Assembly (NCBI GenBank): GCA_964473825.1 | Contig: CAYYQL010000006.1 | Location: 8,903-72,902, forward strand | Length of the DNA stretch: 64,000 nt | Direction: 5' to 3' | Source of the DNA: an uncultured archaeon | GTDB lineage: Archaea; Asgardarchaeota; Thorarchaeia; Thorarchaeales; Thorarchaeaceae | Shown: in pieces, positions 5,900 through 21,327 of the stretch | Layout of the letters: each line of letters starts with the position of its first letter | How positions within the stretch are numbered: the first letter of the stretch is position 1 | Position numbers and translations under genes: made by a program | Notes under the pieces: generated by a model | Database searches by the model: none | Seen by the model: only the letters and a program-made list of their open reading frames with translations | What the model was told of the DNA's origin: nothing

Positions 5900-8182
5900 G
5901 TGCCAGAGCAACCTCGACATGCTTCGGTACAATCTCGTAACTTCCACCTTGGCCATCGAACCCGGAGGCTTCATCGACTGACCGAGAGAACTCAATCTAC
6001 GCTAAGACTGCTTGCAGGACTATATGGAGCCTGCCTCTTCTATGTAGTTCTGGTGATGTTTGAGGGGAGATGGCAAGATCCCGCGATACTCGTGGCACTG
6101 ATGATCAATGTTTTGCTTCTTCTCTCCTCCATTGCTGGACGACATGTCACCAAGAGGAGACTGGCGGCCATCATTGCAGTGATGGGGGGCTATACGGTCG
6201 TTTCTGTAGCAATCGGCAATCTCTCTGAGGTTGTTATCATGACCTCGGGGGGGCTGGCATTGTACGGTGGTATGATGAGTGAGCCGCGGTTCCCCTTGAC
6301 AAGGCGGGCCATGACAACAGGTATTGCTGTCGCAGTCATAATGACGTTTCTGGGGATATACCTAGCCCTAAAAATTGGAGTAGTCTACTTCGTTGGTGCC
6401 GAGATGCTGGGCGCGATAATCCTCAGCGCCAATGGTCGATATACCAAAGAAGAGAATACGGTGGTGGTTGCGATAGCTAATACCTCGGCTATGGTCGCGG
6501 TTGGCGTTCTCATCACGTTTCCAGTAATAGCAATATTCCAGCCCACGATAGCTCCCATACTCATAACCTATCCATTCATTGCGTTTGTCACTGGAACAAG
6601 TGCAACATTCGGTCTCATTCTTCTTCTGCCCTTCCGCGATCGGTTCGAAAATGAAAGATGGCCCCAGGTCAGACCACAAGCTCAGTGTATAATCTCTCTT
6701 GGTGAAGATGCTGAAGCAAGAAAGAACGTGGGAAAAGGGCTAGTCGCTTCAGCCGGTTGGGTAGGGGCAACGAGAGTGGCCGAATATGCAACAGGAGCAA
6801 GTCTGAGCTCACTGCCTCACGCTCTTGGACCAATAGTTCCTGACGCGGCCACAATACCTGATTGGATAGGTGTGTCAAATTCGCCTCTAATTGGAGCCAT
6901 CGGGTTCTTTGTGGGCTGGAAAAGAGCAATTGTTCTCGCCCTCGGAAGCCTCGTTTCGTTCTTGATATGGATGATTCTCGAAGGAGCCGCCCTCATTACA
7001 TTCGGGGCACACTTGAGTAGACCGGAGATTCTGTATCTAGCCCTTGGTGTATTTGCCAGTGTCATTCTAAGTGACGTTCTCGTACGAGGAAGAAAAAGAA
7101 AATCAAGGCAATCAGACAGCGACCAGCTGGCTGAGGAGATGTGTCATGCAGAGCCCATGGGTGATGAAGAGGATAGGCCCTCCCAACTGGCAAGGATTGG
7201 TAGAGTCAGGGAGGAGATGTTCTCGTTAGAGGCCTTCAAGTATGAGATTCGTCAAATGATTCAGAACCCGAAAGAGTATCTGAGAACGCGACGTGGGCAG
7301 CTGCCGCCTTGGATTGCATTTATCTCTCTGGCGCTCTATGCGATAACTGGCATCATGGTGTTTTCTTTACTGAGACCGTTTCCAGCAATCGAGATTCACT
7401 GGCTGCTGTTCATTCTCGGAACTCCACTAGCAATGATTTCAGCCTACTTCACTGCACGAGCAATCAGTGAGACTGGCATGCTCGCGGGATATATTTCAGA
7501 TGCCGTGGCAATTCCGGCCGTCTTGTTCTTCAGGGCCTCATTTCAAGCGATCACCACCTTCATGTCCATGCTTGGAGCACTCCAAGATGCAGCGATTGCA
7601 TTGCTTGCTCAGTTGAAACTGGGTAGAATGACTGGGGTCAGAGGAAGAGACATATTCAAAGCAGTTGCCATCGGCGTGACAGTGGGGACGTTTGTAGGAT
7701 CGCTGATAACCTACATGATATACATCACATATGGTTTCGGTACAGCTGATTTTCCAAGTCCTGCAGCCCAGCTATTCGGTTTCTTGATAATTGGTCTAAG
7801 GGGAATAGGAGAATTCCAGATGCCCGGACTCGATGAATTCCCAACATTACACCCTGCAATTGGACTTGCATATCTCCTGGGCTTCGGTGTGTTGGGTTTT
7901 CTCTTGGGACGCGAAGTGAACAAGCGAGAGATGAGTGCAATGAGTCTTGCAGTGGGCTTACTCATTCCGCCAGCAACATCAGTCACAATATTGATTGGTG
8001 GTCTTATAGATTACCGCCTCAAGAAAATGAGGGACAGAATCCCCGAAAGTGATCAGGATAGACAATCCCGTCATGAGGGGACACGAGAGAGAGATAGCAG
8101 ACTCCTCAGTGGTGTTCTCGCAGGAGAAGCAATTGTAACAGTTATCTGGGTCTTCTGGAGTGCCATTGCTCTATTGTTCTAG
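5900..8182 (+). CDS. OPT-family oligopeptide transporter-like membrane protein (start uncertain)
   Basis: 760-aa polytopic ORF. LTRRAMTTGIAVAVIMTFLGIYLALKIGVVYFVGAEMLGAIIL resembles the N-terminal OPT signature (LT.RA..G......YL.LK.G). It has a central charged loop and a second TM bundle. The GTG at 5900 may be upstream of the real start. Confidence 0.6.
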   Translation: MPEQPRHASVQSRNFHLGHRTRRLHRLTERTQSTLRLLAGLYGACLFYVVLVMFEGRWQDPAILVALMINVLLLLSSIAGRHVTKRRLAAIIAVMGGYTVVSVAIGNLSEVVIMTSGGLALYGGMMSEPRFPLTRRAMTTGIAVAVIMTFLGIYLALKIGVVYFVGAEMLGAIILSANGRYTKEENTVVVAIANTSAMVAVGVLITFPVIAIFQPTIAPILITYPFIAFVTGTSATFGLILLLPFRDRFENERWPQVRPQAQCIISLGEDAEARKNVGKGLVASAGWVGATRVAEYATGASLSSLPHALGPIVPDAATIPDWIGVSNSPLIGAIGFFVGWKRAIVLALGSLVSFLIWMILEGAALITFGAHLSRPEILYLALGVFASVILSDVLVRGRKRKSRQSDSDQLAEEMCHAEPMGDEEDRPSQLARIGRVREEMFSLEAFKYEIRQMIQNPKEYLRTRRGQLPPWIAFISLALYAITGIMVFSLLRPFPAIEIHWLLFILGTPLAMISAYFTARAISETGMLAGYISDAVAIPAVLFFRASFQAITTFMSMLGALQDAAIALLAQLKLGRMTGVRGRDIFKAVAIGVTVGTFVGSLITYMIYITYGFGTADFPSPAAQLFGFLIIGLRGIGEFQMPGLDEFPTLHPAIGLAYLLGFGVLGFLLGREVNKREMSAMSLAVGLLIPPATSVTILIGGLIDYRLKKMRDRIPESDQDRQSRHEGTRERDSRLLSGVLAGEAIVTVIWVFWSAIALLF

Positions 8183-9153
8183 CCTTGTTCTTCCACATAC
8201 TCAGTGAGAGCTTGGAGAAAAACAGGGAAATCATTCGCTTTCATGCCAGCACCGGCGGCTTGGGGATGACCACCCCCGTGAGCATTCGGAATATCAGAAA
8301 CAACCTCCCTCAGGGCCCTATTTAGGTTGATGGGAGAATTCCTTAGTCGTATTGACAAATCAATCTCGGCGTTGTAAGAACGCGCACTTATCCCAATCTG
8401 AGAATCTGTCGCATATGCTGCGAACTTAGCGCTCTTTCCTCGGTATCCACTAATAGGCATATCAAGTACATAGCCGACCTGTCCAAGCTTTCGAGCGTTG
8501 TTATTGACATAACGCAACACCTCATGCTCTATTCGCGTTGCTTTCATAGCTAGTGTCACAATATCATCCATTGAGCTTGGACTCATCCCGAGTGTCAAGA
8601 ACCGTACTAGATCCTTTGCCGCTCGTTGATAGTCAATCTCCTGGAGTGCCTGAACAAGGATTCCCGATTCCAAGTAGAGAGTCCTCTTGTCAAAATCCTC
8701 GAAGTGTTCTCGGGCAAAGGGCGTATTATCACAGAAATCTCCTATTGCGCCATAGAGAGCGAGATGTAAGGCATGCTCTGGTAGTCGCTCAGAGAACTTG
8801 CGATAGGTCATCTCTGCAGCACTGGGGCCTCGCTCATGAAAGAAATCAACTCTCTGCCGGAGTTTGTTCTTCAGTCTGCTTGGTATTGGATGATGATCGA
8901 TCCAATGGATTGTGGTAGTCTCAGGGAACCGTGCAATCGCCTGAAGAATCCTGTCAAATCGGGATATGTTGACTGCTATGTCGCTTATTGAAACCACTTT
9001 GGGATCATCTTTTGCAATCCGAAACAGATCATGGTGAATCTGGGAAGGTCTGGTGAAATAGAAGTCGGCTCCAGGAAACGCCAGCAATGCTATTGCGCCA
9101 GAAGTGATTCCGTCAAGGTCTCCATGTGAAAGAACAACGGACTTCATTTTCAA
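8179..9153 (-). CDS. DHH/DHHA1-family phosphoesterase (NrnA/RecJ-like core)
   Basis: The motifs LSHGDLDGITSG, HWIDHHP, GAIGDF and GGGHPQAAGA are present. It lies 15 nt downstream of the preceding operon gene and overlaps the convergent OPT gene end by 4 nt. Confidence 0.8.
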   Translation of the reverse strand: MKMKSVVLSHGDLDGITSGAIALLAFPGADFYFTRPSQIHHDLFRIAKDDPKVVSISDIAVNISRFDRILQAIARFPETTTIHWIDHHPIPSRLKNKLRQRVDFFHERGPSAAEMTYRKFSERLPEHALHLALYGAIGDFCDNTPFAREHFEDFDKRTLYLESGILVQALQEIDYQRAAKDLVRFLTLGMSPSSMDDIVTLAMKATRIEHEVLRYVNNNARKLGQVGYVLDMPISGYRGKSAKFAAYATDSQIGISARSYNAEIDLSIRLRNSPINLNRALREVVSDIPNAHGGGHPQAAGAGMKANDFPVFLQALTEYVEEQG

Positions 9154-9168
9154 CCAACTCTCAATCCA

Positions 9169-10542
9169 TCAACGCTTGTATGTTTCTTCCAAAACCCGAT
9201 CCCATTCGTCCTCCCCATCCTTCGGTCTGCTCTTGCGTGCTTCAGCACGTTCCCTTCTAGACTTGGCAGCTTCTTTTCTCCTCTTCTTGATCTCCCCTTC
9301 GCGCTTCTTGCTGAGAGATTTTTCTTCTTCAGACACAATGCGTTTTGCCTCCGCTCTCCTGGTCATCCAGCTGATGACCATCGCAGCAAAGACGAAAGTG
9401 AGTGTTGTGGGTACCAGAAACAGGAGCACAATCTCTGGTTGGAGAAGCTCGGCACTGTTCTCAATTCCCGGGGGCAATGACAGGATTTGCACAAAGATGT
9501 TAGGACTCATCAAGAGAAATGAGAGTGCAACTACCGCCAAGAAACGAATCGCCGAACCCATCACGGTGGATGATAAAACATATCCCAGGGAGGGGGCTGC
9601 AGCTCTCGCAGTCAATTCGTTCTTGGCATTCGGGTCCTCATTCAGTAACTCATCTACGAATATCTGCAGACGGCGTACATCGCTGATGGCATCTAGGTTC
9701 TCCAAGGCACTTGTACTACCCGCAACCTTTCTCTCGATTGCCTCTCTCAGGAAAGAAAAGGCCGTTGCCCCTGTGGTCCGGCTCATGGCAGAATGAGAAG
9801 CGATATCCCCGCGCTCAACAGCGCTCTGTTTCTTGGTGGCAGTCCTCAGAGCGAGCAATTGTTTCTTGAGGGTTTCCTCTCGGTCTTCCACCGGTTTCCC
9901 CACAGAATGGCTGTAGACCATCTGATAGCTGATCTCAAGATATGCGAATGAAACAAGAACAAGAATCTGAAGCTCGGAAGTGACGAAGACAACAAAATCC
10001 GTGGGGAATAGAGCATAATCATAGATCGGTAAATCTCTGAATGCGGCCACAATCAAGATGGCTTGAATGGATACAAAGGCGGCACCAACAAACTTGTGCT
10101 CCATTCTGACCAGTGACTGAAGGAAGAACGCAATACCCAAGGCTGCAAATAGGAAGTACAGAAAAGTGAATGTGCTATCGTAGAGCTCGAGGGCCATTGA
10201 CATGATGTTGCCAACAAATGAGATGAACACTTCATTCACATTCGTGACTGGATCTGTTATCGCATATGGCTGGAGATACCACATTCGAAGAATTATGGTG
10301 TTATACAGACCGCTGAGAAGAGTGTTTAGGCTCTGACCTCCTGTGAATATAGCACCCAATCCATTTACAATCAATACAGCAACGAAGAAGACGATAAAGG
10401 AGAGCAGTCGAAATACAGTTACTATGAAGATGTAAGGAGCATCCCAGTCCCAATAGCCTGACAGAAGTGAATAGACTGTATACGCCATAATTGAGAACGT
10501 GATTAGAGACAGGATTCGAAGAACCCAAGTAACAACCTTCAA
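9169..10542 (-). CDS. Uncharacterised polytopic membrane protein with a basic coiled C-terminal tail; last-but-one gene of the MoxR operon
   Basis: 457 aa. It has about 6 N-terminal TM spans, a soluble segment of about 110 aa, 2-3 more TM spans, then a K/R/E-rich tail (KKREGEIKKRRKEAAKSRRERAEARK). Its start overlaps the DUF58 stop by 4 nt. Confidence 0.6.
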   Translation of the reverse strand: MKVVTWVLRILSLITFSIMAYTVYSLLSGYWDWDAPYIFIVTVFRLLSFIVFFVAVLIVNGLGAIFTGGQSLNTLLSGLYNTIILRMWYLQPYAITDPVTNVNEVFISFVGNIMSMALELYDSTFTFLYFLFAALGIAFFLQSLVRMEHKFVGAAFVSIQAILIVAAFRDLPIYDYALFPTDFVVFVTSELQILVLVSFAYLEISYQMVYSHSVGKPVEDREETLKKQLLALRTATKKQSAVERGDIASHSAMSRTTGATAFSFLREAIERKVAGSTSALENLDAISDVRRLQIFVDELLNEDPNAKNELTARAAAPSLGYVLSSTVMGSAIRFLAVVALSFLLMSPNIFVQILSLPPGIENSAELLQPEIVLLFLVPTTLTFVFAAMVISWMTRRAEAKRIVSEEEKSLSKKREGEIKKRRKEAAKSRRERAEARKSRPKDGEDEWDRVLEETYKR

Positions 10543-11882
10543 AACAGAGCAACCCCCCGCTGTTTGGCAAGATTATACTGTCGGATAATTGTGGGTAGAA
10601 AATCTTCGGGGCCGACGTTCACAACCTCTATTCCAAACCTCGCCAGAGCTCTGGCAATCTTCCTCCTCCGTTCCCACAACTCCTCGGAAACAGCCTCAGC
10701 CAAAACCTTCTCGACTGGACCAAACTGACCCACCGGAGCCTCAAACCACGGTCCGAAGGGACTGATGACCTGAGCCTTATGACCATTGGCAACAACAGTC
10801 TTCATGGCATTCAAGAGGGGAGCCGGACTCTCCTCGAGATCTGTAAGAAATATGAAGAGGCTGCGCTTCCTCGTGTTCTCAACTACATGTGCTACTGCAT
10901 TCTCATAGTCGCTCCATCCAGTCGGCTCAGCCATTGCAAGCGCCTCAAGTACGTCATACATGTGATTGGGCTTCAAGCTAGGCTTCACATAGGAGTGGAC
11001 GATGTCAGAGAATACACAGGTCCCAATGAGGTCTTTGCGCTCCAGACCCATGTAGGTGAGAAGTACAGTGGCCCGGATTGCATACTCCAGTTTTGTATTA
11101 TCGGGATAGCCATTTCCCATGCTACCCGAGGTATCAATCATGCAGACAACCTGAACATTCTTCTCCATCTCGTACTGCTTCACCATGAGATTGCCACGCT
11201 TGGCGCTGGTCTTCCAGTCAATTTTGCGGAAGGCGTCACCCGGGCTATACGGTCTGAAGCCAGCAAAGTCGGTCCCCATTCCAATGACCCTTGTTCGGTG
11301 GGCACCAAACATCAGTCCAAGCTGTCTCTGTTTTCCCAGAGACTCCATACGCCTTACGTCTTTCCAAGTGGGATAGACCAGAATCTCAGTTTCGGCCTCA
11401 AGAGTCCTGGTATAATAGTGAAACCCAAGACGGTCACGCATCACGACCTCGGTGGGTCCCAAGTAGTATCTGCCGCGGTTCTTTGCCTGTAGAATATACG
11501 AAAAGGTCATGCTGCTTCCCGGTTCTATTCTAGACGCCATGAAATTCTCACCAATTGCCAGAATCCATGTTTCGGGATATCTATCCCATACCTCAATGAA
11601 GTCGAAGTGTCGTCTTGACTTGTTCCGAATGGTGACCCTCACTCTCAGAAAATCACCTGAGAATACCTTCACTTTGTCAACCTTTCGATCCACTTCAATA
11701 CCAGAGATGTTCGCAGTAGTCGCGAATAGAGGCAAGGTAACAACCAAGCCTACAATAAGATATACTCCCAGGGTGGTCAAATAGAAGTTCGAAAACGCAA
11801 ATCCACTTGTGAGGAGTAGAACTCCTGCAAAGACAACCACGAAACCTCTCTCTGTAATCACTTTGGACCTTCTCCAGATCAA
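10539..11882 (-). CDS. DUF58 (vWA-like) protein, the usual MoxR partner
   Basis: FRPYSPGDAFRKIDWKTSAKRGNLMVKQYEMEKNVQVVCMIDTSGSM is the DUF58 signature with a MIDAS-like D.SGS. It has two N-terminal TM spans. Confidence 0.8.
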   Translation of the reverse strand: MIWRRSKVITERGFVVVFAGVLLLTSGFAFSNFYLTTLGVYLIVGLVVTLPLFATTANISGIEVDRKVDKVKVFSGDFLRVRVTIRNKSRRHFDFIEVWDRYPETWILAIGENFMASRIEPGSSMTFSYILQAKNRGRYYLGPTEVVMRDRLGFHYYTRTLEAETEILVYPTWKDVRRMESLGKQRQLGLMFGAHRTRVIGMGTDFAGFRPYSPGDAFRKIDWKTSAKRGNLMVKQYEMEKNVQVVCMIDTSGSMGNGYPDNTKLEYAIRATVLLTYMGLERKDLIGTCVFSDIVHSYVKPSLKPNHMYDVLEALAMAEPTGWSDYENAVAHVVENTRKRSLFIFLTDLEESPAPLLNAMKTVVANGHKAQVISPFGPWFEAPVGQFGPVEKVLAEAVSEELWERRRKIARALARFGIEVVNVGPEDFLPTIIRQYNLAKQRGVALF

Positions 11883-11892
11883 CCCACACAGA

Positions 11893-12879
11893 CTATCTTG
11901 GACAATCTACTTCTCCCAGAATCTTTGAAACTATGCGTTCAACCGTCAGCCCCTCAAGTTCAGCCTCAGGCTTCAGCATTAGGCGATGATTCATTGTCTG
12001 CACACAGAGCCTGCGCACATCTTCGGGGATGACGTAGTTCCTGCCTCGCATAGCAGCCCGAGCCTTAGAGGCGTTCATGAGAACTAGTGAGGCCCGCGGA
12101 GAGGCTCCAAGCAGTATCTGAGGGTCATTTCGCGTTCTAACTACAATGTCACGAATGTACGCTATGATATCCTCGTCGATGAAGACCGTCTTACATGCAT
12201 TCTGCATCTTTATGATGGTCTCCGGATTCGCCAGAGTCCTCAGATTCTCAGCTTCGCCAAGATGTTTTCGACGGATGACTTCAGCCTCTTCTATTCCTGT
12301 CGGATAGTCTAGTACAAGTCTGAACATGAACCGGTCCAACTGGGCCTCTGGGAGAGGATAAGTACCCTCCTGCTCCACCGGATTCTGGGTGGCGATGATG
12401 AGGAAGGGCTTTGGTAGTGGGCGTGTGACCCCTTCTATGGATACTTGGCGCTCCTCCATCACTTCGAGTAGAGCACTCTGCGATTTTGGTGGGCAGCGAT
12501 TGATCTCGTCTGCCAACACCAGATTTGCAAACACAGGGCCCTTTCGGAACCAGAACTCGCCCGTACTCTGATTGAAGACGTTGCTGCCAAGTAAGTCTGC
12601 AGGCAGCGTGTCAACAGTGAGCTGAATCCGTCTAAACTCACATCCCAAAATAGATGCAAATGTGCGGGCCATGTATGTCTTAGCCAACCCCGGAACACCC
12701 TCCAGTACAACATGGCCATTGGACATCATTGCAATCAGGCAATCTGTCAGTATGTCGGTCTTGCCAACAATGATCCGCTGCGCTTCTCGTATTATCTCAG
12801 TAGTCAGATTGTGTACCTCTTCGATACTCAGTATCTCCGACGTTCCACCTATCTGTCCACTCGTTTCGTCAACTGTCAT
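11893..12879 (-). CDS. moxR: MoxR-family AAA+ ATPase
   Basis: Walker A is GVPGLAKT and Walker B is LADEINR. QSALLEVMEERQVSIEG and the C-terminal lid (GASPRASL) are present. The length of 328 aa is typical. Confidence 0.9.
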   Translation of the reverse strand: MTVDETSGQIGGTSEILSIEEVHNLTTEIIREAQRIIVGKTDILTDCLIAMMSNGHVVLEGVPGLAKTYMARTFASILGCEFRRIQLTVDTLPADLLGSNVFNQSTGEFWFRKGPVFANLVLADEINRCPPKSQSALLEVMEERQVSIEGVTRPLPKPFLIIATQNPVEQEGTYPLPEAQLDRFMFRLVLDYPTGIEEAEVIRRKHLGEAENLRTLANPETIIKMQNACKTVFIDEDIIAYIRDIVVRTRNDPQILLGASPRASLVLMNASKARAAMRGRNYVIPEDVRRLCVQTMNHRLMLKPEAELEGLTVERIVSKILGEVDCPR

Positions 12880-12890
12880 TTCGTGTTACC

Positions 12891-14291
12891 TCACCTTTTT
12901 GCATTGATAAGTTTAGATTCGATGTTTCTCACAAAGAAGAAGATCTCCATCATCTCATTCTCACCAATCTTCATACCTGGATTGGAGGAGATTTCTTCGA
13001 TTCGCTCAATCTTCTCGAAGAAGCGTTCTTGCTTCAGTGTAGGATCTTTATGTTTCATCATCTCCCAGACTCGATGTGGGTCGTACTTTGTCCACATATT
13101 CGTCTTTATGATGTCCCGACGCAGTTTCCGGTATATCATCTTCACAACTCGGGCATAGTTACCCTCACGTCTGTAATAGGACATCCTCTCACTGAAATAT
13201 GTCTGACCCTTGCGCATGAATACTTCCGATACGGCCTTGACCTCAGGTTTCTTCATATCAGGGAGATACTTCCGGATCCCCACAGCTGTGACAAAGGGGT
13301 ACAGGGCCGAGAAATATGGCATTGTTGAAAGCCAGAAGGCTCGTGCTAGATAAAGACCGTAGAAGAACTCCGCAGAGGTTGGCGGTACTTCTAACAGATG
13401 CTCACAGAAGACTACGGGAATGCTGGAATTACCCTGAGTCAACCATCGAATAGCATTGCTTGCAAAACGTGCATTATCCGGCCATAGCTCAATCATGTCG
13501 TTTGTGAAAATGCTTGGATCGCTCGCAGCGACAATTCTACCTGTCACCGATGACGCACCGCCAAATCCAAGGTCTATCGCTCCAACAACAGGAAGAGAGC
13601 CATTCCATTCTCCCTCACTGGGCCAGGGGTCCTCCTTCTCAATATCAGTCTCACACCACGCACGTTCGGTGGTCCATGCTATACCTGCCAGCCCCAAGGC
13701 TGAGCGTGGACTGAGTGCTGTAGCCCAGTTTAGATGCAAGCTATTCACCCCTTGAGTCAGAGCGCCTCCATCAAGTCCTGGCCGCAAGTCAGTTATTATG
13801 GGGAGCTTCGGGCTCTTGTCATAGGAATCAAGATCGAGAAGAACACCGCCGGTGAATGACAAGATGCCACTGACAGGTAACGGACTCGATCCACCCCATG
13901 CATTGGAAATTAGAGTATTTAGCAGGAAGAATGAGTTGTTTGCAGTACCAAAGTCGTCTGCAATAAGCACACTACCGCCTGCCATCAGATGATCGAATAG
14001 AACGAGTACTGCGTCAACACTGAAGTCACGGACTGGCCCCATAATCACGAGAAGCGCATCACCCTCGTATCGAGTAATCACACTCATAGAAGACTGAATC
14101 GCGTGGGTCTCATACCCTTGTGCCTCTATCTGTTCTCTGAAGCTGCTCAGGCCATTCCAGTCTTCGTTGTAAATCCCGAAATCCTGGGGATATGTTTCCG
14201 TAACGTTGAATGCGGTAGTCGCAACTAACATGCCTACTGGAAACCAGGCAAATACGAACAGTATCATCCAGAGTCCGTCTTTCCAGCCCAT
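12891..14291 (-). CDS. DUF4350-like membrane-anchored protein
   Basis: It has an N-terminal TM span, then ALLVIMGPVRDFS...LFDHLMAGGSVLIADDFGTANN, which is a DUF4350/GldG-like pattern. It has a late TM span (YGLYLARAFWLSTMPYFSALYPFV) and a helical cytoplasmic tail. Confidence 0.55.
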   Translation of the reverse strand: MGWKDGLWMILFVFAWFPVGMLVATTAFNVTETYPQDFGIYNEDWNGLSSFREQIEAQGYETHAIQSSMSVITRYEGDALLVIMGPVRDFSVDAVLVLFDHLMAGGSVLIADDFGTANNSFFLLNTLISNAWGGSSPLPVSGILSFTGGVLLDLDSYDKSPKLPIITDLRPGLDGGALTQGVNSLHLNWATALSPRSALGLAGIAWTTERAWCETDIEKEDPWPSEGEWNGSLPVVGAIDLGFGGASSVTGRIVAASDPSIFTNDMIELWPDNARFASNAIRWLTQGNSSIPVVFCEHLLEVPPTSAEFFYGLYLARAFWLSTMPYFSALYPFVTAVGIRKYLPDMKKPEVKAVSEVFMRKGQTYFSERMSYYRREGNYARVVKMIYRKLRRDIIKTNMWTKYDPHRVWEMMKHKDPTLKQERFFEKIERIEEISSNPGMKIGENEMMEIFFFVRNIESKLINAKR

Positions 14292-14324
14292 TAGTATTCA
14301 CATCATTGGTTGACTCATCTTCAT

Positions 14325-17300
14325 CTACTCGGACATTGCTCCGACATCTATTCGTGGATAGATATCAGTGAATATGCGGACTGCCTCCTCATACGTTTCC
14401 CTGGAGATCTCGGATCCCGAGAACCGCGCCTCTTCGTAGATATACATGAACCTCTCCGCATCGGTGCTCTCCAAGGGGAGCGATTTGAGAACCCTGTCGA
14501 GGTATTCTCGAGCAGTTTCGGAAGCAAGTCGTTCCGAACCTATTTTCATTCCGCACATCTGTTCGAAGGTTCTGTACGCAAGTGTGATAGATTGGGCGTA
14601 CTTGCCCGCACCTGCGAGTTTCTTGATATTGCGGAGCTTACTCGGTATGTCCATTCCCGTTCTCTTTGTGGGACTTCTGAACATTCCCTTCACATAGTAT
14701 AGGTACAAAAGCACAACAATCACTGCTCCAGCAAGTGCTATACTTGGTACCAAAATGTCAATGAAACTTTGCATGAAACCACCTGTATTAGTTTGAATTT
14801 GAAGTGTATAAGACCCAACGGTCATGTTATTGGCATCGGAAAGAATCGTGATTGTGTAAGTGATAGATCCATTTCCCAGTTGCCCTAACCATTTGTGACT
14901 GAAATTCCCGTCGCTATCGGTGATGACAGTCTCCTCCTGACCCCCGATGGAAATCACCAACGTACGCCCAGCAATCGGCAATCTCGTGCTGCTGCCATCA
15001 TTGTACAAGGTGCCGCTGATTATCAAGTCGTCTCCGAATTGGATGCGTTCAGGGGTTGTGTTATCAAGGTCTGCGCCTATGAAGACATGAACCGCCTCGG
15101 TAGACTGTACCTCATCACCGTTGATGAGGCCTCCACCATTATATGCAAGATTCACAAAATATCGCCCGCTGGCTCGTGACCAGTCAAGAGGAATAGTGAT
15201 AGTAATGGTCGTCCAGCTCAGGGAATTGATGCGCCGGCTCTCCACTTCGGTGTCATTCAGAAACAAAAGCACAGTTCCATCGATTGCGTTACCATCTTCG
15301 TCGAGAAGACGAATATCAATCTGGATCGTTTCTCCAGCCATGACATCTTCATTGGTCAACAGGTCTACAGACAGCTCAGAACGTAGATGTATCTCAACAG
15401 TCCAAATATCAGGATTACTCTCAACATCAACATATGAGGATTCGGCAGCCACAGTAATCTCGTAGATAGCCGCCTGCGCATCTTGCGGAATCAGAATGTC
15501 AATTGAGAACTCGCCAGCTGTGTCAGTCACGGCGCTCTGACCCGTGGATGATCCATTTGCATAGACCGAGATGGTTACGTCGACGGCGGCGCCACCTTCA
15601 TTGGAGGCCGTTCCAGTGATAGTCAGGGTATCACCGCGCTCCAATGTGAAGACTGATTGTTCATCGAGAACAATCACAACGAGGTCGCGGACCTGCAAGA
15701 TCTGAGGAGAGGTCTGGGCATCTTCATAGGCAACTGAGGGAGAAACAAACCTGACAACAAAGGGCACATCCCCCAACCAGTGATCCCATGGAATTTCATA
15801 TGAAAGGGTGAAACCCCCACTACTATTTGTAGGTGATGCAGCCTCCACAGACCCATCCCAGACCAGTTCGACAGTGTAGCCAGCCATGGCGGTTCCGTTT
15901 CCAAAGGACAATGTGCCCGTTACAATCACATCTTCTCCCCGGTAGAGTGAAGACGAGATAGAATCGGCTGCGATTGCCACCGGAATGAGCTGGATATCGA
16001 TAGATATGGAGTCAGACTGGCTCGGGCTCACGAAAGAATCAGGAGGTAAACAATACGCCCAAACGACAGTTGTGCCCAGTGGTGTGGTGCTATCCAGTGT
16101 GAAGACATACTGGAAGACTCCATTGATATCTGTCTGCACGGTCCCGAGGAGAATCTGACCTTCTGTATCGGACGAATGATCCCAGTAGATATCTACATCA
16201 ACGAAGCTATAAGGTGTCCCGTTGTCCAGAACCATTGTGCCGGTAATATTGAGGGAATGCTCCCGATATACAACAGAGGGTGTTGCCCCAATCGTCCAGA
16301 CAATGGTCATAGCACTGATATTGAGAGTGCTCACATCGGACACGGTACCCGCAATCCAGTTCTCCGTTGGTTGGAGTTCGATCCATATGTCATATCTTCC
16401 CGGGCTCGTTGATTGTGGAATCTGCCACAGGATGTAGAAGTAGCCATCAGAATCTGTTGAGACCGTGCCGACATTATTGCCATCGAAGATGATTTGGAGA
16501 GTCACATATGCATATGGGACGTCCGGGCCAGATAGGTCGTAGAAGAGTGTACCATTCAGTGGGACGTAATCGCTGATGTAGTAGTCCGTAGAACCTCCTG
16601 TCATGAATCCGCTGATCAGGGTCTGCCACTGCTCAAGTTGGAGAGGTTCATGAACCGACTCGTTGGTAGACAAGAGTAGCGTACCTGCAAAGGTTGCGTA
16701 AATCTCGATTCCGACCCATTGTGTATGCTCCTGAAAGCCCGTGTGGACGAACGTGCTCTCGCCATTCGCATCGGTCAGGACCCAGTCTATCACATAGTCG
16801 GTTCCGTTATACCACCATATAGTCACATTCTCGCCCGAGATATCTGTTCCATTGGAGAAGTAGAGATGGACATAGATTGACAGAGACTCATTGAGCTTGA
16901 CAGAGCTGGAGCTGATGCTGATGTCCAGATTCACCAAGTATCTCTGAGCGTTCACTGTAAGTAGAGAGGTCGTGGCATTGGCATCGAGAGGGCTAGTGCT
17001 TGTGTAGTTGCACTTGAAGTCATACGACCCCTCACTCTGGACACCAAGCGTGAAATTGTAGAGATAGCGAAAACCTCCCGAAGAGTTTGTCTGAACCGTA
17101 CCAAGAAGAACCCAAGAATCGCCCTCAAAGAGATAAATTCGAACATCTGCGTCTGTCAGCGGTGGAGTACCGCTGCTGTAGGTCAGATTCCCTTGGATGA
17201 CGAGAGTTTCATCTAGGTAGACTGCTGCGGGAACGTCCATGCTGAAAGTGGGTTGATACAGAACAAGATCGAAACCAGCACCGGGCGCGGACGATGCATT

Positions 17301-20300
17301 GCCCCAGAGCGCTTCGGTCGAGGTATACTCCGCCCAGACCGTGACAGCACCAGGAGAGTTCGTGGTGGGAGAGCAGGTGTAGGAGAAATTGAAGAACCCG
17401 GATGAGTTAGTCGTCAGTGCAGGATACGAGTCGATTGTACCATCTCCCCAGTCCCAGTAGAGTGTCACATCCTCCCCGGCTATTCCAGTACCGTCCAGAA
17501 AGGCAAGTTGACCGTATACCCAGATTGTTTCATTCAAATGATAGGATGTCGAGTTTGTGCTGGTGGTCAGTGTCAGCTCATAGGGAATGAGATCCACGTC
17601 CCGATTCGCGGACTGAGCATCAGCCCATAGATCAGGTTTGCTGCTGTTATAGGATGCCCAGAGGCGCACGGTCTCGAAACTATCACTTCCGACACTTAGA
17701 TTATAGAAAAAGGTGAAAGCGCCGGCACTTTCTGTCAGTCTTGTGTATTGATATGTGGATGTGGAGTTCTGGTAGTATATGGTGACTGTTGCACCAGAGA
17801 TAGGAGCACCGTTCTCATCGAAGGTCAGAGTGCCGGAGAACGTTATTGTCTCATCAAGATGATACTCGGTATTATCGGTGTTAGCATTCAGGTTCAGCTG
17901 ATACAGCTGAAGCGTAATATCAGGCGTAAGAGTGTTGCTGGAATTGCCATACAGTCGACTCCAAGAAGTGAAAGCAACAGTGAGATTCACAGTACTGGGG
18001 CCATCAGAAGTGTCAAGCTCGTACGTGAAGTTGTACCAGCCAGTTGAGTTTGTGAGGCGCTGAAATGTCTGTTGAAGGGTGCCGTTGTCCCAGTAGATAT
18101 CGATTGTGGCACCGGAGATTGGAGTCCCGTTTGTGAACTGAAGTTGCCCCCAGACATATACGGTTTCATTGAGATGATAATAGGTGCTGTTTGAGAAGAC
18201 AGAGACTGCCGTTGGATAGTAAGTGACCGTGATAGTGACATTATCTGATATGTCATTGGCGAAGACATCAGAGTCAGGGGCAAATTCTGCCCAGATACTG
18301 AAGGTTTCATATCCATGGTTGAGGGGAACCTGATGGGTGAACTGATATTGACCATTTCCACCGTCCGTCAACACAACTGTCAGATTATGCGGACCCGTGC
18401 TATTGCCCCACCAGATTGTGACAGGTGCCCCTCCCAAGAGGGCGCCCATCTCAGGAACTGAAACATTCCCTGTGATATTCACATATTCAAGCGGGTGAAG
18501 CGTCGTTTCATCAACGTCTATCAACACTTCGGTGATCCATTTCTCAACTGAGATTGTCATATTAGATGAACGACTGCCGTCGTATTCTGGGTCTGTCGAG
18601 ATAAACTCAGACCAGTAGGTGACAGGACCGAGGTAACCTACCGGCACCGTGTAATTCAGTTCGTAATAGCCGCCACCTGTTGTATCCACTGTCCCAATCA
18701 ACTGAGGGGTGGTTCCATTGTCCCAGTAGATATCAACTTCCTGACCAACAAGGCCAGAGCCGTTGAGAACGTCTGTGAGATAGCCAAAGATTGTGATATT
18801 CTGGTAGGGATGGACTACTTCTGGTGCTCTTGGAGTTGAATCTATCGTGAGACTGCTTGCGCGAATAGTGACTTCAATCTGAACGGTATTACTCCAGTTT
18901 CCAAGAATGCCCGACAGGGTTGTTGTCCAGTTGGCAACAGCATCGTAGGTGCCTGTCTCTTGTCCAGCTGGGATGGTATAAGAACCACTGAAGCCGCCAG
19001 TAGAATTGGTCGAGTCGGAGTCTACTAGCACCCCATCAAAGAACATGTTGATGGTCTCGGAACTCAGAGGGGTGCCATTGAGCATCTCAGCAATTCCATC
19101 GTAGAGAAGTTCAGCACCGGGATATGCACTTGTGGGCGTCACGGTGAGAGCAATCTCTATTTTCCCAGAGAGGGTGATTGTGGAGTTTTCTGCTGAACGC
19201 GCTGGAAGGAGAATCGGGATTCCCTCGTCGTTGTATTCTCCCGCGTAACTGGACCATACTTCATGTGTACCCGGCGCCATACGAGAGTCAGCAGGATCGA
19301 CGAATATGTCAAGCTCATACGTGCCGTCTGCTTGGATTGTGGCGTTGCCCATCCATGTCTCGTCCCACATGATCTGCATCTGGTCGTTGTTCAGAGTTGT
19401 CCCATCTACCGGTTCTCCTCCCACCGTCATGAGTCCATGGGCATATACTGTGTCGTCCCAAGCTCCAGTGTAATTGTCTGAACCCAGTTTGAGATTCATG
19501 TCTATTGTTTCGGCAGGCGAAAAGACAGAATCGAAAGATGAAGGGAGGGGTTGCAGAGGATCTGGTTGAGCAACAACATAAAGCAGAGTGAAGTTTTGAA
19601 CATCATAGGTTGAGGCGTGGTATGTAGCAGTGATGTTGTGGAGACCAGGAGTTGCTCCCGGTTCATAGGAATAGGTGATGTTTGCCAGAGGCAACTCTGA
19701 GCCCTGTTCAATCATCGTACTGCCCAGCAGCATGTTATCAGTCAGATCACGAAAGACAATGAACTCTGATGTGGAAACAGGGACATAGTTAACCATGAGG
19801 AGGGCACTCAGAGTAAATTCATCACCAATCTCTATCCACCCTTCTGGAACATTCGCCCAGACCCATAGCTGAACATCGCCTTGTTCTACATTCTCGGGTA
19901 TCTCATCTCCACCCATGTCAGGAGGGAGGGGGATTGGAAGTATCTGTCGCCATTCTCCACCTTCTGATGATTCAGACATAGGGATGAAGACCTCAGCCCA
20001 GAACATCATGTGCTTCACCTTGAGAACACGATAGCCGTCCTGCGCATCACCGATTGCATAGCCCTTTGCAATCCGTGCAGGAATGTCCAAGTATCGCATG
20101 AAGACGCAATATGCGGTGGCAAAGTCCATGGGCAAACCACCACCTCGTTCCAAGAACCAATCCGTGACTTCTTGGCCAGAATCTGGACGTTCAAAGACCT
20201 CTGGTTCCTCAATCATGAGTTCAAATGTGCTCCGGAAATAGCTTTCGACAACGGATGCGGTCTGAAAGGCATTATCACCAACGTCCTCGAACTGAGTGAT

Positions 20301-21134
20301 ATTGTCAATAACCCTTGTTGTCAATGATAGGTCAGCAAGAGTGGGAAGACCATATGTGTTGCGAATAGAAACCGGTGCTAGACTGCCCTCTAGAGCGCTT
20401 GCGGCCATATTGGCCAGATCTTGCTGCTCAAAGGTAATCTCAAAGCTGATGAGAACATGTTCACCCGTGGGCGCCTCCAAGAGTGGGCTGAAGAGCAGAG
20501 TGCCATAATCATCCGTTTCTAGATCGTACCGCACCAGCCTAGATTCTGCATCTGGCTGATAGCTTCCGGTTTCAACATGCCCCGTTGTGAACGAGTCTTC
20601 GATGACCAAGATAACGGGAAAGAGGGTGGGTAGTTCTATCTCACCAACATTGGGGCCTGCCGTCACATTGATGACGATGGTGTATATCTCATTACCAAGT
20701 AATTCTGCCTGAGCTCGAGTGATGATCTCAGGCCCCACGTCACGGATTGAGTCCCCCAGGGTTTTCCCCCAGCTCGAACCGTCGTATTCGTCATATGCTC
20801 CAGTCCGCCATAACTGAGGGGGTTGGTCGGGATACGCGTAGAAGACCACGTCATCTAAGTGATCAAGAATGTCGGGGGGGAGCTCTTGGTCCATGGGAAT
20901 ATCTGTGTAGTTGACATTCTCAAACCAGTTTGACTGCCCTCCAGCCCAGCTTATGTCATAGGGCCAAGGAGCGACATCATCATACTCTTCATGTGGAGTG
21001 TTCGTCCGAACTGCCCCCATCTGTATCACAATGAAGGTGTTTGCAGCCCATACGATTGTCAAGAGAAGAAAGATAGAGCTGAGAATGGTTGTGATACCCA
21101 TCTTACGTTTGGGCTTGACTTCGGCGGCACTCAC
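14325..21134 (-). CDS. Giant (2269 aa) bitopic surface protein: N-terminal anchor, transglutaminase-like core lacking the catalytic Cys, about 15 Ig-like/CarboxypepD_reg-like repeats, C-terminal TM span and DUF4129-like cytoplasmic domain
   Basis: The N-terminal TM span is ITTILSSIFLLLTIVWAANTFIVI. The core reads WFLERGGGLPMDFATAYCVFMRYLDIPARIAKGYAIGD...KHMMFWAEVFIP. Repeats of about 95 aa carry Y.L.ET..v.G.L.f.nGtp..ga.v.iyw.n......t.T.s.G.f.f.Y. The C-terminal TM span is ILVPSIALAGAVIVVLLYLYYV. The tail has ETAREYLDRV...FMYIYEEARFSGSEISRETYEEAV. Confidence 0.85.
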   Translation of the reverse strand: MSAAEVKPKRKMGITTILSSIFLLLTIVWAANTFIVIQMGAVRTNTPHEEYDDVAPWPYDISWAGGQSNWFENVNYTDIPMDQELPPDILDHLDDVVFYAYPDQPPQLWRTGAYDEYDGSSWGKTLGDSIRDVGPEIITRAQAELLGNEIYTIVINVTAGPNVGEIELPTLFPVILVIEDSFTTGHVETGSYQPDAESRLVRYDLETDDYGTLLFSPLLEAPTGEHVLISFEITFEQQDLANMAASALEGSLAPVSIRNTYGLPTLADLSLTTRVIDNITQFEDVGDNAFQTASVVESYFRSTFELMIEEPEVFERPDSGQEVTDWFLERGGGLPMDFATAYCVFMRYLDIPARIAKGYAIGDAQDGYRVLKVKHMMFWAEVFIPMSESSEGGEWRQILPIPLPPDMGGDEIPENVEQGDVQLWVWANVPEGWIEIGDEFTLSALLMVNYVPVSTSEFIVFRDLTDNMLLGSTMIEQGSELPLANITYSYEPGATPGLHNITATYHASTYDVQNFTLLYVVAQPDPLQPLPSSFDSVFSPAETIDMNLKLGSDNYTGAWDDTVYAHGLMTVGGEPVDGTTLNNDQMQIMWDETWMGNATIQADGTYELDIFVDPADSRMAPGTHEVWSSYAGEYNDEGIPILLPARSAENSTITLSGKIEIALTVTPTSAYPGAELLYDGIAEMLNGTPLSSETINMFFDGVLVDSDSTNSTGGFSGSYTIPAGQETGTYDAVANWTTTLSGILGNWSNTVQIEVTIRASSLTIDSTPRAPEVVHPYQNITIFGYLTDVLNGSGLVGQEVDIYWDNGTTPQLIGTVDTTGGGYYELNYTVPVGYLGPVTYWSEFISTDPEYDGSRSSNMTISVEKWITEVLIDVDETTLHPLEYVNITGNVSVPEMGALLGGAPVTIWWGNSTGPHNLTVVLTDGGNGQYQFTHQVPLNHGYETFSIWAEFAPDSDVFANDISDNVTITVTYYPTAVSVFSNSTYYHLNETVYVWGQLQFTNGTPISGATIDIYWDNGTLQQTFQRLTNSTGWYNFTYELDTSDGPSTVNLTVAFTSWSRLYGNSSNTLTPDITLQLYQLNLNANTDNTEYHLDETITFSGTLTFDENGAPISGATVTIYYQNSTSTYQYTRLTESAGAFTFFYNLSVGSDSFETVRLWASYNSSKPDLWADAQSANRDVDLIPYELTLTTSTNSTSYHLNETIWVYGQLAFLDGTGIAGEDVTLYWDWGDGTIDSYPALTTNSSGFFNFSYTCSPTTNSPGAVTVWAEYTSTEALWGNASSAPGAGFDLVLYQPTFSMDVPAAVYLDETLVIQGNLTYSSGTPPLTDADVRIYLFEGDSWVLLGTVQTNSSGGFRYLYNFTLGVQSEGSYDFKCNYTSTSPLDANATTSLLTVNAQRYLVNLDISISSSSVKLNESLSIYVHLYFSNGTDISGENVTIWWYNGTDYVIDWVLTDANGESTFVHTGFQEHTQWVGIEIYATFAGTLLLSTNESVHEPLQLEQWQTLISGFMTGGSTDYYISDYVPLNGTLFYDLSGPDVPYAYVTLQIIFDGNNVGTVSTDSDGYFYILWQIPQSTSPGRYDIWIELQPTENWIAGTVSDVSTLNISAMTIVWTIGATPSVVYREHSLNITGTMVLDNGTPYSFVDVDIYWDHSSDTEGQILLGTVQTDINGVFQYVFTLDSTTPLGTTVVWAYCLPPDSFVSPSQSDSISIDIQLIPVAIAADSISSSLYRGEDVIVTGTLSFGNGTAMAGYTVELVWDGSVEAASPTNSSGGFTLSYEIPWDHWLGDVPFVVRFVSPSVAYEDAQTSPQILQVRDLVVIVLDEQSVFTLERGDTLTITGTASNEGGAAVDVTISVYANGSSTGQSAVTDTAGEFSIDILIPQDAQAAIYEITVAAESSYVDVESNPDIWTVEIHLRSELSVDLLTNEDVMAGETIQIDIRLLDEDGNAIDGTVLLFLNDTEVESRRINSLSWTTITITIPLDWSRASGRYFVNLAYNGGGLINGDEVQSTEAVHVFIGADLDNTTPERIQFGDDLIISGTLYNDGSSTRLPIAGRTLVISIGGQEETVITDSDGNFSHKWLGQLGNGSITYTITILSDANNMTVGSYTLQIQTNTGGFMQSFIDILVPSIALAGAVIVVLLYLYYVKGMFRSPTKRTGMDIPSKLRNIKKLAGAGKYAQSITLAYRTFEQMCGMKIGSERLASETAREYLDRVLKSLPLESTDAERFMYIYEEARFSGSEISRETYEEAVRIFTDIYPRIDVGAMSE

Positions 21135-21327
21135 CAGGCTTTCACTCTCATAGACTCAGCGTGCACATTCTCGTTGTGGGAGATGGCGGTCTCTGACTAG
21201 TCCGGTTCGATGTATCTTCCTGAGGATTAAAGGATTTCTTGTCCAGTCTCAATACGATCGTCAAAGAGGACGCCTCAAGAGCGAAAGAGCCAAGAAACCG
21301 AGATCTTGCTAGAAGATAGGACGGTGA

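Follow-up and report, generated by a model that had tools for sequence, protein, structure and literature searches.

The window analyzed here is a 64,000-nucleotide (nt) stretch of DNA from an uncultured archaeon of the Thorarchaeaceae (assembly GCA_964473825.1, contig CAYYQL010000006.1, positions 8,903 to 72,902). It carries six consecutive genes on the minus strand that encode, in order, a giant surface protein with a transglutaminase (TGase)-like domain and immunoglobulin (Ig)-like repeats, a DUF4350 protein, a MoxR AAA+ ATPase, a DUF58 protein with a vWA domain, a membrane protein of 457 residues with eight predicted transmembrane (TM) helices (hereafter the 8-TM protein) and a small DHH phosphoesterase (Table 1). 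The Asgard source that had been suggested is supported: thorarchaeal metagenome-assembled genomes are the nearest relatives of the window, and a tRNA that presumably contains an intron agrees with an archaeal origin. Judged from the sequences, the locus is best read as the thorarchaeal form of an envelope module of archaea that centers on the chaperone/adaptor pair of MoxR (AAA_3) and DUF58 (vWA). An open reading frame (ORF) scan returned the six co-directional genes exactly where the original prediction had placed them, with gaps of 33, 11, 10, -4 and 15 nt; the third gap is the spacing between the MoxR stop and the DUF58 start, and the fourth is a 4-nt overlap of the DUF58 stop with the start of the 8-TM gene. 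The operon-like packing that had been proposed was borne out as well, since the gaps are tight and none of them contains a run of five or more T. The cluster is bordered upstream by a divergent HD-domain gene, 193 nt away, and downstream by a convergent OPT transporter gene with a 4-nt overlap at the stop codon of DHH. Its sole sizeable non-coding stretch is the 193 nt located 5' of the giant gene, which contains one A/T hexamer (TTTAAT, ~21231) and would be the only room for a shared promoter. Scans for bacterial promoters and terminators, which are ill-suited to archaea, found promoter-like sites at the number expected from shuffling and 18 terminator-like matches where 8.9 were expected, none of them in an intergenic gap.

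Pfam searches agreed with the proposed domain assignments, recovering Transglut_core together with DUF4129, DUF4350, AAA_3, DUF58/vWA and DHHA1; the three families on whose recovery the original prediction depended (DUF58, DUF4350 and DUF4129) were all found in their respective ORFs. The MoxR protein matched AAA_3 over the full profile (positions 1-131; E = 2e-62) and AAA_lid_2 (E = 8e-23), and its Walker A (GVPGLAKT), Walker B (LADE), sensor 1, arginine finger and sensor 2 motifs are intact, the translation showing GVPGLAKT, LADE, ATQNP, LDRF and SPRA. With a far weaker match to bpMoxR (E = 1.6e-10), it is by its sequence a MoxR of the classic AAA_3, DUF58-linked type (MRP subfamily). The DUF58 protein (DUF58, E = 6e-29; also VWA_2 and BatD) consists of an N-terminal hairpin of two TM helices, an Ig-like (BatD/DUF11-like) domain and a vWA domain, in which the metal ion-dependent adhesion site (MIDAS) is intact in the window, in other Thorarchaeota and in Loki-type genomes (DTSGS, a downstream Thr and the Asp of TDLE). 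The DUF4350 protein (DUF4350, E = 7e-12; also ABC_transp_aux) has an N-terminal TM helix, an extracellular flavodoxin-like domain, a second hydrophobic segment and a basic cytoplasmic tail of ~130 residues. The idea that this tail is a second DUF4129-like domain was rejected when hhalign of the two thorarchaeal alignments gave a probability of 0.7%.

Conservation was assessed by scanning a single genome for each GTDB species. The 457-residue protein was found at 78 loci, all of them assigned to Thorarchaeota by title or close similarity. Within the reach of the contigs, the order giant protein/DUF4129, DUF4350, MoxR, DUF58 and 8-TM protein was kept at 78 of 78 thorarchaeal loci, and the DUF4350 gene was found at 69 of 81 loci. 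One apparent exception, the 'chromosome' of a thorarchaeal metagenome-assembled genome (L051; CP070658.1) in which the module genes upstream of MoxR seemed to be missing, was discarded. It contains 100-N scaffold joins at 4112-4211, 8215-8314 and 15199-15298, and because one such join cuts the MoxR gene, the gene absences at this locus are assembly artifacts. Identity to the window across the Thorarchaeota was ~81% for both MoxR and DUF58, ~62% for TM-DUF4129, ~58% for both DUF4350 and the 8-TM protein and 38-54% for the head of the giant protein. The flanking OPT, DUF167 and profilin-like genes are likewise syntenic within this group, so thorarchaeal synteny alone says little about function; the decisive evidence comes from the other Asgard classes, because the flanks differ there.

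Three Hermod/Hod-labelled contigs carry a TGase-Ig-DUF4129 protein (1144-1172 residues), DUF4350, MoxR, DUF58 and the 8-TM protein, flanked on one side by a gene of 179-220 codons, with PALP or GATase/SIS genes beyond it, and on the other by a PTPS gene that is followed in two of the three by a thermosome gene. An Odin-labelled contig encodes a giant protein of at least 2001 residues, a DUF4129-like protein of 176 residues, DUF4350, MoxR, DUF58 and the 8-TM protein. A Heimdall-related contig has the same series beginning with an Ig-repeat protein of 1115 residues, in which the head of the giant protein is replaced outright, and a separate DUF4129 protein. On Loki-type contigs the DUF58 and 8-TM genes are adjacent or overlapping and the giant protein is absent; MoxR lies nearby in two of three (L089 and L090), and the third contig (L088) ends just upstream of DUF58. 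The persistence of this pair without the giant protein marks DUF58/MoxR plus the 8-TM protein as the constant core. Overall, the 8-TM gene adjoins DUF58 or MoxR at eight of nine non-thorarchaeal loci, directly after DUF58 except at L089, where it follows MoxR. These results show, at the level of gene content, a core module of five genes, i.e., the giant protein (with or without a separate TM-DUF4129 protein), DUF4350, MoxR, DUF58 and the 8-TM protein. The conserved synteny that had been anticipated therefore holds for these five, at the 78 thorarchaeal loci and in other Asgard classes, and fails for the sixth gene, DHH. The occurrence of the module across Asgard classes appears to be new.

The DHH gene encodes 324 residues, compared with about 450-500 for archaeal RecJ, GAN and HAN. 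It matched DHHA1 in Pfam (E = 7.7e-10), its DHH N-domain scored 19.7 bits against a cut-off of 28.1, and it fell well short of the NCBIfam equivalogs RecJ_archaeal (54 bits against 360) and GAN (27 against 850), so that membership in the RecJ/GAN/HAN equivalogs was not supported. The motifs HGDLDG (DxD), SDI (D), DHH, GAIGDFCD (GD..D) and GGGH are conserved in 44 orthologs. The nearest PDB entries are 5x4h and 5x4i ('Uncharacterized protein'), which we take to be RecJ of Pyrococcus furiosus, followed by 5ghr ('SsDNA-specific exonuclease'). The original prediction had counted this enzyme as an integral component, and on that view all six genes would form one obligate functional unit. Consistent with such a unit are the 15-nt gap, the shared strand, the lack of a terminator-like T run before DHH and the presence of DHH in the deepest thorarchaeal branches. 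An intact DHH gene is, however, missing from ~25 thorarchaeal loci, in ~23 of which the convergent OPT gene directly follows the 8-TM gene. These loci fall in at least four separate groups of a neighbor-joining tree of MoxR, DUF58 and the 8-TM protein; their scatter, given that the deepest branches have DHH, indicates repeated loss. At two loci, truncated remnants of the first 52-68 residues lie between the 8-TM and OPT genes (L018, 11396-11551; L034, 3837-4040), which points to decay in situ. No DHH gene occurs in the Hermod, Odin, Heimdall or Loki modules, and the closest characterized relatives of the protein are RecJ-type nucleases (archaeal RecJ/GAN) with housekeeping roles. An obligate six-gene unit is thus very unlikely, and on its distribution the DHH gene is a Thor-specific, dispensable accessory neighbor.

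The giant protein begins with a TM anchor, followed by a head of ~500 residues that includes the TGase core, 15 Ig-like repeats, a second TM helix and a DUF4129 tail. An iterated hidden Markov model (HMM) built on the protein itself identified 14 repeat units at E ≤ 1.4e-13 and one weak unit at E = 0.043; in Pfam the repeats match the CarboxypepD_reg, MG2 and Big families. All 61 NxS/T glycosylation sequons of the protein lie between its two TM helices. Sequon density is 2.7 per 100 residues in this ectodomain, 0.45 in DUF58 and 0 in the 8-TM protein, which fits the sidedness proposed below. The head is homologous along its length to the Hermod-type head (E = 7e-44), and its TGase core to that of a haloarchaeal TgpA-like protein (E = 1e-7). 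A profile of the Thor and Hermod cores found a single PDB match, the periplasmic TGase domain of Pseudomonas aeruginosa TgpA (6g49; E = 1.2e-6). In that alignment the catalytic Cys is replaced by Pro, the His falls at a variable position and the Asp is replaced by Ile. All 22 aligned thorarchaeal sequences (the window and 21 others) have Pro for Cys, a variable residue for His and Ile, Val or Leu for Asp, in a domain that is otherwise strongly conserved, and the earlier suggestion that the TGase is catalytically dead is therefore upheld. The Hermod-type core has Gly at the Cys position and keeps the His and the Asp, and no TGase domain was detectable at the Heimdall-related locus. Loss of the triad was seen in Asgard copies only; a Halorussus protein keeps all three residues. 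TGase catalysis thus appears to have been lost progressively in the Asgard copies, and this finding, like the expansion to 15 repeat domains in Thorarchaeota, appears to be new.

These substitutions bear on a model proposed by Zhang and Aravind (2012; PMC3495828) for the common MoxR-vWA-TGL operon, namely membrane-proximal degradation in which the vWA protein recruits a substrate, MoxR unfolds it and the TGase-like domain cleaves it. Although the head is a true homolog of the TgpA TGase domain, as the model would have it, the missing triad contradicts degradation at the present locus. The nucleophile is gone in both the Thor and Hermod proteins, the Heimdall-related locus offers no candidate protease domain of this type, and the TGase-like domain sits among the 61 sequons outside the cell, whereas MoxR is cytoplasmic. 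We regard this model as scarcely credible here.

The N-terminal TM helix of the giant protein is read as a signal anchor and as the counterpart of the last TM helix of TgpA_N (DUF3488). Pfam and hydropathy analysis gave no TgpA_N match in the window protein and a single N-terminal TM helix; its Hermod and haloarchaeal relatives match merely the last third of the TgpA_N profile (positions 158-282 against residues 6-132 of the Hermod ortholog; positions 168-332 in the haloarchaeal protein). At the other end, the C-terminal TM helix is homologous to the N-terminal TM helix of stand-alone DUF4129 proteins. DUF4129 is fused to the giant protein at ~34 thorarchaeal loci and forms a separate TM protein of 130-196 residues at ~24, as it does at the Heimdall-related and Odin-labelled loci; where a thorarchaeal locus is split, the giant protein still ends in a TM helix and a short basic tail of its own. 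Fused and separate states alternate over the thorarchaeal tree with several switches, and this repeated fusion and fission argues that the giant protein and TM-DUF4129 act together and are physical partners. The original prediction had treated the fusion of TGase and DUF4129 parts as peculiar to the present locus. This proved not to be the case, given the split loci, a version of ~1150 residues in Hermod-type genomes and a protein of the same architecture, with an intact triad, on a Halorussus plasmid. A Hermod-labelled thorarchaeal locus (L030) has two tandem DUF4129 segments, one ending the giant frame and the second in a 130-codon ORF without a TM helix.

The 457-residue protein had no match in Pfam, NCBIfam or PADLOC, and had been described as an orphan. 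It belongs instead to a family of ~100 clusters at 50% identity (81 at E < 1e-10) that spans Asgard classes, as found in a profile search of 1.8 billion cluster representatives. Every family member named to a taxon is from Asgard archaea (Thor, Hermod, Hod, Kari, Heimdall, Ran and Odin lineages and Ca. Prometheoarchaeum syntrophicum, a cultured species). Unnamed metagenome proteins make up most of the family, which is likely restricted to Asgard archaea. No Pfam family, TgpA_N included, matched any of 30 diverse members. A model built by AlphaFold2 from a 64-sequence alignment (predicted local distance difference test, pLDDT, 76.8; predicted template modeling score, pTM, 0.61) has eight TM helices, two of them prolonged far into the cytoplasm, and an insert of helices on the same side. 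The conserved cytoplasmic helical domain covers residues ~210-320, and the C-terminal tail is rich in K, R and E. Foldseek found no fold match in the PDB, with best E-values of 0.88 for a model of pLDDT 65 and 1.3 for that of pLDDT 76.8. In the alignment of 64 Thor, Hermod, Loki and Kari sequences, the common motifs are YLExSYQ…P..ER, F.F.RE.IE[RK], D.RRL, LTA…AP and P.I..S.E…PE, and invariant residues lie where TM6 reaches the cytoplasm (LE..Q..Y…P…R), within TM7 (R333) and around the final extracellular loop and TM8 (P347, E370, P378). A DEWD motif following the long K/R/E-rich helix is invariant in 25 of 25 aligned thorarchaeal sequences and absent from the Hermod and Loki members; it could be a Thor-specific docking peptide, e.g., a ligand of the MIDAS.

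The 8-TM protein had also been thought to replace the multi-TM, DUF3488-like part of TgpA. Gene position agrees with this idea, since the gene located 3' of DUF58 is TgpA itself in Listeria and that of a polytopic DUF7519 protein in Halorussus. Homology does not: a detached TgpA_N/DUF3488 was rejected on the lack of any TgpA_N match in Pfam and on hhalign probabilities below 0.3% for the 64-sequence profile against the Listeria and Rubrobacter TgpA proteins, a comparison of limited sensitivity in that the targets were single sequences. Homology to the haloarchaeal post-DUF58 proteins was rejected as well, as neither a Haladaptatus protein of 302 residues nor the Halorussus DUF7519 protein gave a signal. 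The 8-TM family appears to be a new, near-constant DUF58-linked partner, seen so far in Asgard archaea only.

A rival reading is a dedicated secretion or insertion machine, in which the giant glycoprotein would pass through a conduit or insertase made of the 8-TM and DUF4350 proteins, with energy supplied by MoxR-DUF58. The charged or polar invariants at the ends of its TM helices (E203, Q207, R333, E370) and its conserved extracellular loop (PPGIxNSxELxQPE) are in keeping with this function, and Makarova et al. (2015; PMC5898192), writing of a 'novel secretion system', tied arCOG01314/DUF4350 to GldG of the gliding/type IX secretion machinery and drew a model of this kind. The N-terminal signal anchor of the giant protein is nevertheless of an ordinary kind, within the capacity of Sec, the 8-TM model has no fold similarity to known translocases, and the Loki-type loci keep DUF58 and the 8-TM protein with no gene for a giant cargo nearby. 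In the NorQ/NorD, CbbQ/CbbO and RavA/ViaA pairs, the MoxR ATPases serve as remodeling chaperones. MoxR ATPases are known in this capacity and not as translocation motors (PMC7159879), and we consider a secretion machine decidedly unlikely.

The analysis establishes which genes are present, the topology predicted for their products, the integrity of the motifs, the loss of the triad and the pattern of conservation; from these we infer all of the protein contacts and the direction of action that follow. Our tentative proposal, to which we give somewhat less than an even chance, is that MoxR and the vWA protein remodel or assemble a non-catalytic giant surface glycoprotein. The chaperone-assisted assembly of a surface structure suggested originally is thus a reasonable hypothesis, one that Makarova et al. 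(2015; PMC5898192) had put forward in general terms. The giant protein would be anchored in the membrane at both ends and expose on the outside a TGase-like head devoid of catalytic activity and 15 N-glycosylated Ig-like domains, with the GldG-like ectodomain of the DUF4350 protein beside it. On the cytoplasmic side would lie the DUF4129 tail, DUF58 tethered to the membrane, and two parts of the 8-TM protein, its helical domain and its charged tail. DUF58 would use its MIDAS to hold a partner by an acidic peptide. This partner would be the DUF4129 tail or, in the 8-TM protein, the cytoplasmic domain or the tail, and once captured it would be remodeled by a MoxR hexamer at the expense of ATP. 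The 8-TM protein may act as a membrane hub that couples the two sides, and the outcome would be a surface structure that is assembled, maintained or switched. TGase chemistry would lie outside the conserved Asgard function, and the DHH enzyme would be an accessory. The mechanism is modeled on the MoxR-vWA precedents NorQ/NorD, CbbQ/CbbO, RavA/ViaA and midasin and on the general proposal for such pairs (PMC7159879).

Several points weigh against this proposal. The MIDAS of the Hermod-type DUF58 is degenerate (DVGAT/DCGDT), so that capture by this site would not be universal. On a Kariarchaeaceae contig the 8-TM gene occurs without MoxR or DUF58 within 10 kb. What places DUF58 in the cytoplasm is its 2-TM hairpin, the positive-inside rule and its scarcity of sequons, and Makarova et al. 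(PMC5898192) regarded the vWA protein of their system as probably secreted. Finally, it is the spacing of the genes that suggests their co-transcription, and promoters inside archaeal coding sequences are possible.

The same components could also work in the opposite direction, as an outside-in sensor in which the giant protein is a filamentous surface receptor, the dead TGase head binds a ligand, the TM-DUF4129 tail relays the signal to MoxR-vWA and, as a corollary, the DHH enzyme provides a nucleotide-signal output in Thorarchaeota. An outside-in relay has been proposed for the actinobacterial Esr pathway (bioRxiv 10.64898/2026.09.08.750141) and for the MoxR-vWA ternary conflict systems (PMC7159879), and EsrA offers a parallel in architecture, with a domain at its tip, 14 Ig-like repeats and genetic ties to MoxR, vWA and TGase (bioRxiv 10.64898/2026.09.08.750141). 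Divergence is faster in the head than in the cytoplasmic parts (38-54% against 81% identity), and the outright replacement of the head at the Heimdall-related locus is what would be expected of a ligand-binding tip; the catalytic motifs of DHH are intact. On the other hand, no kinase, FHA, effector or transcription-factor gene was present at any locus examined, and DHH, the sole candidate output, has been lost repeatedly. The MoxR protein is of the DUF58-linked rather than the bpMoxR type. The module is also confined to a single locus, vertically stable and near-universal in the sampled thorarchaeal genomes, unlike conflict systems as characterized previously (PMC7159879). We therefore regard a sensor as unlikely. 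Assignment to a defense system was rejected, as PADLOC returned 0 matches for the six proteins, and no VMAP, iSTAND, beta-propeller, effector, kinase or FHA domain was found in the six proteins or in their neighbors across the loci. The high conservation, stable position, lack of effector domains and lack of PADLOC hits argue for a housekeeping role in the envelope and not for a conflict system.

A more speculative extension of the remodeling proposal is that the 8-TM protein, MoxR and the MIDAS-bearing vWA adaptor constitute an unrecognized, Asgard-only transmembrane mechanochemical coupler, in which the AAA+ ring, by pulling on tails in the cytoplasm, would switch giant non-catalytic, integrin-like adhesins and thereby control contacts with partner cells or the surface coat. 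MoxR is the closest prokaryotic relative of the AAA+ domains of dynein and midasin (Zhang and Aravind, 2012; PMC3495828). We consider this extension improbable.

Comparison with known systems places the module more precisely. In P. aeruginosa, PA2875, PA2874 and tgpA are co-transcribed, and TgpA, which has a periplasmic TGase domain, is essential (PMC3507681). The MoxR-DUF58-TgpA operon of this species, whose order is the same in Listeria monocytogenes, resembles the thorarchaeal locus in having an AAA_3 MoxR followed by DUF58/vWA and a membrane protein whose TgpA-type TGase domain lies outside the cytoplasm and precedes a TM helix and DUF4129. TgpA, however, is active, essential and equipped with a multi-TM TgpA_N, whereas the thorarchaeal giant protein lacks the triad and has one N-terminal TM helix; the gene for the TGase protein is the last in bacteria and the first in Thorarchaeota; and the thorarchaeal locus adds 15 Ig-like domains, DUF4350 and the unrelated 8-TM protein. 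The surface protein has the same plan at the Halorussus vallis plasmid locus, which encodes a TgpA-like protein of 997 residues, DUF7269, DUF58 and DUF7519. The TgpA-like protein has one N-terminal TM helix, a partial TgpA_N, a TGase core, Fn3/Ig repeats, a TM helix and DUF4129, and the gene after DUF58, whose start overlaps, encodes a polytopic membrane protein. It differs in its intact triad (GYCEYFA, HAWVEVY and FDPT) and fewer repeats, and hhalign detected no homology between DUF7519 and the 8-TM family of Asgard archaea (probability 0.08%). MoxR and DUF4350 are unannotated in this stretch, for which the PLSDB gene table is incomplete.

The same components were described by Makarova, Galperin and Koonin (2015), who combined DUF4350 (arCOG01314), MoxR, vWA and Ig proteins in a predicted archaeal "secretion or membrane remodeling complex" (PMC5898192). 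Both that system and the present locus have a DUF4350/GldG-like protein anchored in the membrane, a MoxR ATPase of COG0714 and a vWA protein that starts with an Ig-like domain, and both include surface proteins with Ig domains as well as membrane proteins that are small or polytopic. The membrane partners of that system (arCOG03875, arCOG07126 and arCOG11232), compared with the 8-TM family by description only, are proteins of 2-3 or 5 TM helices, and its vWA protein was modeled as secreted (PMC5898192). That paper predates Asgard genomes, and the word TGase occurs nowhere in its text. On the basis of these likenesses the locus is best classified with the arCOG01314 system, as its Asgard form; the general DUF4350/MoxR/vWA/Ig-protein system was already predicted in 2015, and the Asgard form is a variant of it.

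The threat-sensing Esr pathway of Actinomycetales is alike in having a filamentous surface protein, with ~14 Ig-like repeats and a binding domain at the distal end, that is genetically linked to MoxR, vWA and a protein of the TGase family (bioRxiv 10.64898/2026.09.08.750141), and the MoxR-vWA ternary systems share the logic of 'capture and remodel' (Kaur et al., 2020; PMC7159879). Esr differs in having kinase, phosphatase and FHA outputs and a beta-propeller tip, and a separate TGase protein, EsrD, that holds EsrA at the cell surface, no such features being present in the thorarchaeal module; the hallmarks of the conflict systems are absent from it too. Bat (Bacteroides aerotolerance) operons combine MoxR and DUF58 with membrane, vWA or TPR proteins (PMC5700661), and the Loki-type locus L090 (MoxR…TPR-DUF58-8TM) resembles them in having a TPR protein. 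The bifidobacterial PFNA cluster includes an FN3 surface protein, MoxR, DUF58 and TGase (PMC12067865). The BatA/BatB-type vWA membrane proteins and the Ser/Thr kinase of these systems are absent from the thorarchaeal module, and neither system has the 8-TM family or DUF4350.

MoxR-DUF58 modules are among the most widespread uncharacterized prokaryotic operons. In the literature we found no link between Asgard archaea and MoxR/DUF58 modules, and the only two papers in which at least two of DUF4129, DUF4350 and DUF58 occur together mention them incidentally. The Asgard modules are vertically conserved, have dispensed with TGase catalysis and nearly always include a membrane partner that is without a Pfam family. 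This shifts the focus away from enzymology and toward protein-protein coupling of DUF58/MoxR with DUF4129 and the 8-TM protein. The module also offers a concrete candidate among the poorly understood surface proteins of Asgard archaea, a protein of 2000 residues that has 15 Ig-like domains and some 60 sequons for glycosylation, and the family of its membrane partner has a member in a cultured species. Its practical value is modest at present.

Table 1. Positions in the window of the six-gene cluster, the predicted parts of its proteins and associated features.
Feature	Position	Strand	Basis or occurrence
Giant surface glycoprotein, 2269 aa	14325..21134	-	ORF scan + Pfam
N-terminal TM helix (aa 19-37), KPKRK just before	21024..21080	-	hydropathy
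TGase-like core (Transglut_core, aa 291-395) without Cys-His-Asp triad	19950..20264	-	Pfam, E 1.4e-8
15 tandem ~107-aa beta-sandwich repeats (aa 542-2097)	14844..19511	-	iterated self-HMM
C-terminal TM helix (aa 2127-2145)	14700..14756	-	hydropathy
Cytoplasmic DUF4129 domain (aa 2186-2253)	14376..14579	-	Pfam, E 5.5e-10
DUF4350 (arCOG01314/GldG-like) protein, 466 aa	12891..14291	-	ORF scan + Pfam
MoxR AAA+ ATPase (MRP/AAA_3 type), 328 aa	11893..12879	-	ORF scan + Pfam
DUF58 adaptor, 447 aa	10539..11882	-	ORF scan + Pfam
8-TM family membrane protein, 457 aa	9169..10542	-	ORF scan; Pfam-less
DEWD-bearing C-terminus of the 457-aa protein	9169-9240	-	alignment
Small DHH/DHHA1 phosphoesterase (RecJ-like), 324 aa	8179..9153	-	ORF scan + Pfam DHHA1
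Divergent intergenic region, 193 nt, 5' of giant gene	21135..21327	.	function inferred only
Profilin-like + DUF167/YggU gene pair	5062-5442 and 5556-5885	- and +	window; also L002, L082, L095

Among the neighboring genes, the HD-domain phosphohydrolase gene just upstream of the giant gene (21328-21942, plus strand; E = 1e-19) is met by a convergent CYTH-domain gene (21926-22570, minus strand; E = 3e-33) with a 17-nt overlap, so that three genes of nucleotide-phosphate hydrolase type flank the module, HD and CYTH at one end and DHH at the other. HD and CYTH were rejected as conserved nucleotide-signaling partners on a comparison with the Hermod loci, where the gene at the equivalent position is unrelated. 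Beyond the OPT gene, a profilin-like gene of 126 codons (Pfam Profilin, E = 0.001, below threshold) adjoins a DUF167/YggU ('PF1765-like') gene. A DUF167 gene also lies a few kb from the 8-TM gene on the Kariarchaeaceae (L082) and Heimdall-related (L095) contigs, where a profilin-like or other small gene usually accompanies it and the remaining flanks differ.

Two genes downstream of the 8-TM gene, the Heimdall-related contig (L095, 12355-13380, plus strand) encodes a protein of 341 residues that matches the GIFT domain of IFT52 (E = 1e-18) and, more weakly, ThuA, OST48_N and DUF4350, making it a second GldG/GIFT-type protein in this neighborhood. At the Kari- and Loki-type loci L082, L089 and L090, several genes for small GTPases of the Arf/Ras/Roc type lie within 10 kb of the 8-TM gene, which probably merely reflects the high density of GTPase genes in Asgard genomes. 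Elsewhere in the window, a 105-nt tRNA match (57925-58029, plus strand) that was found with Rfam and not with ARAGORN is presumably an intron-containing archaeal tRNA.

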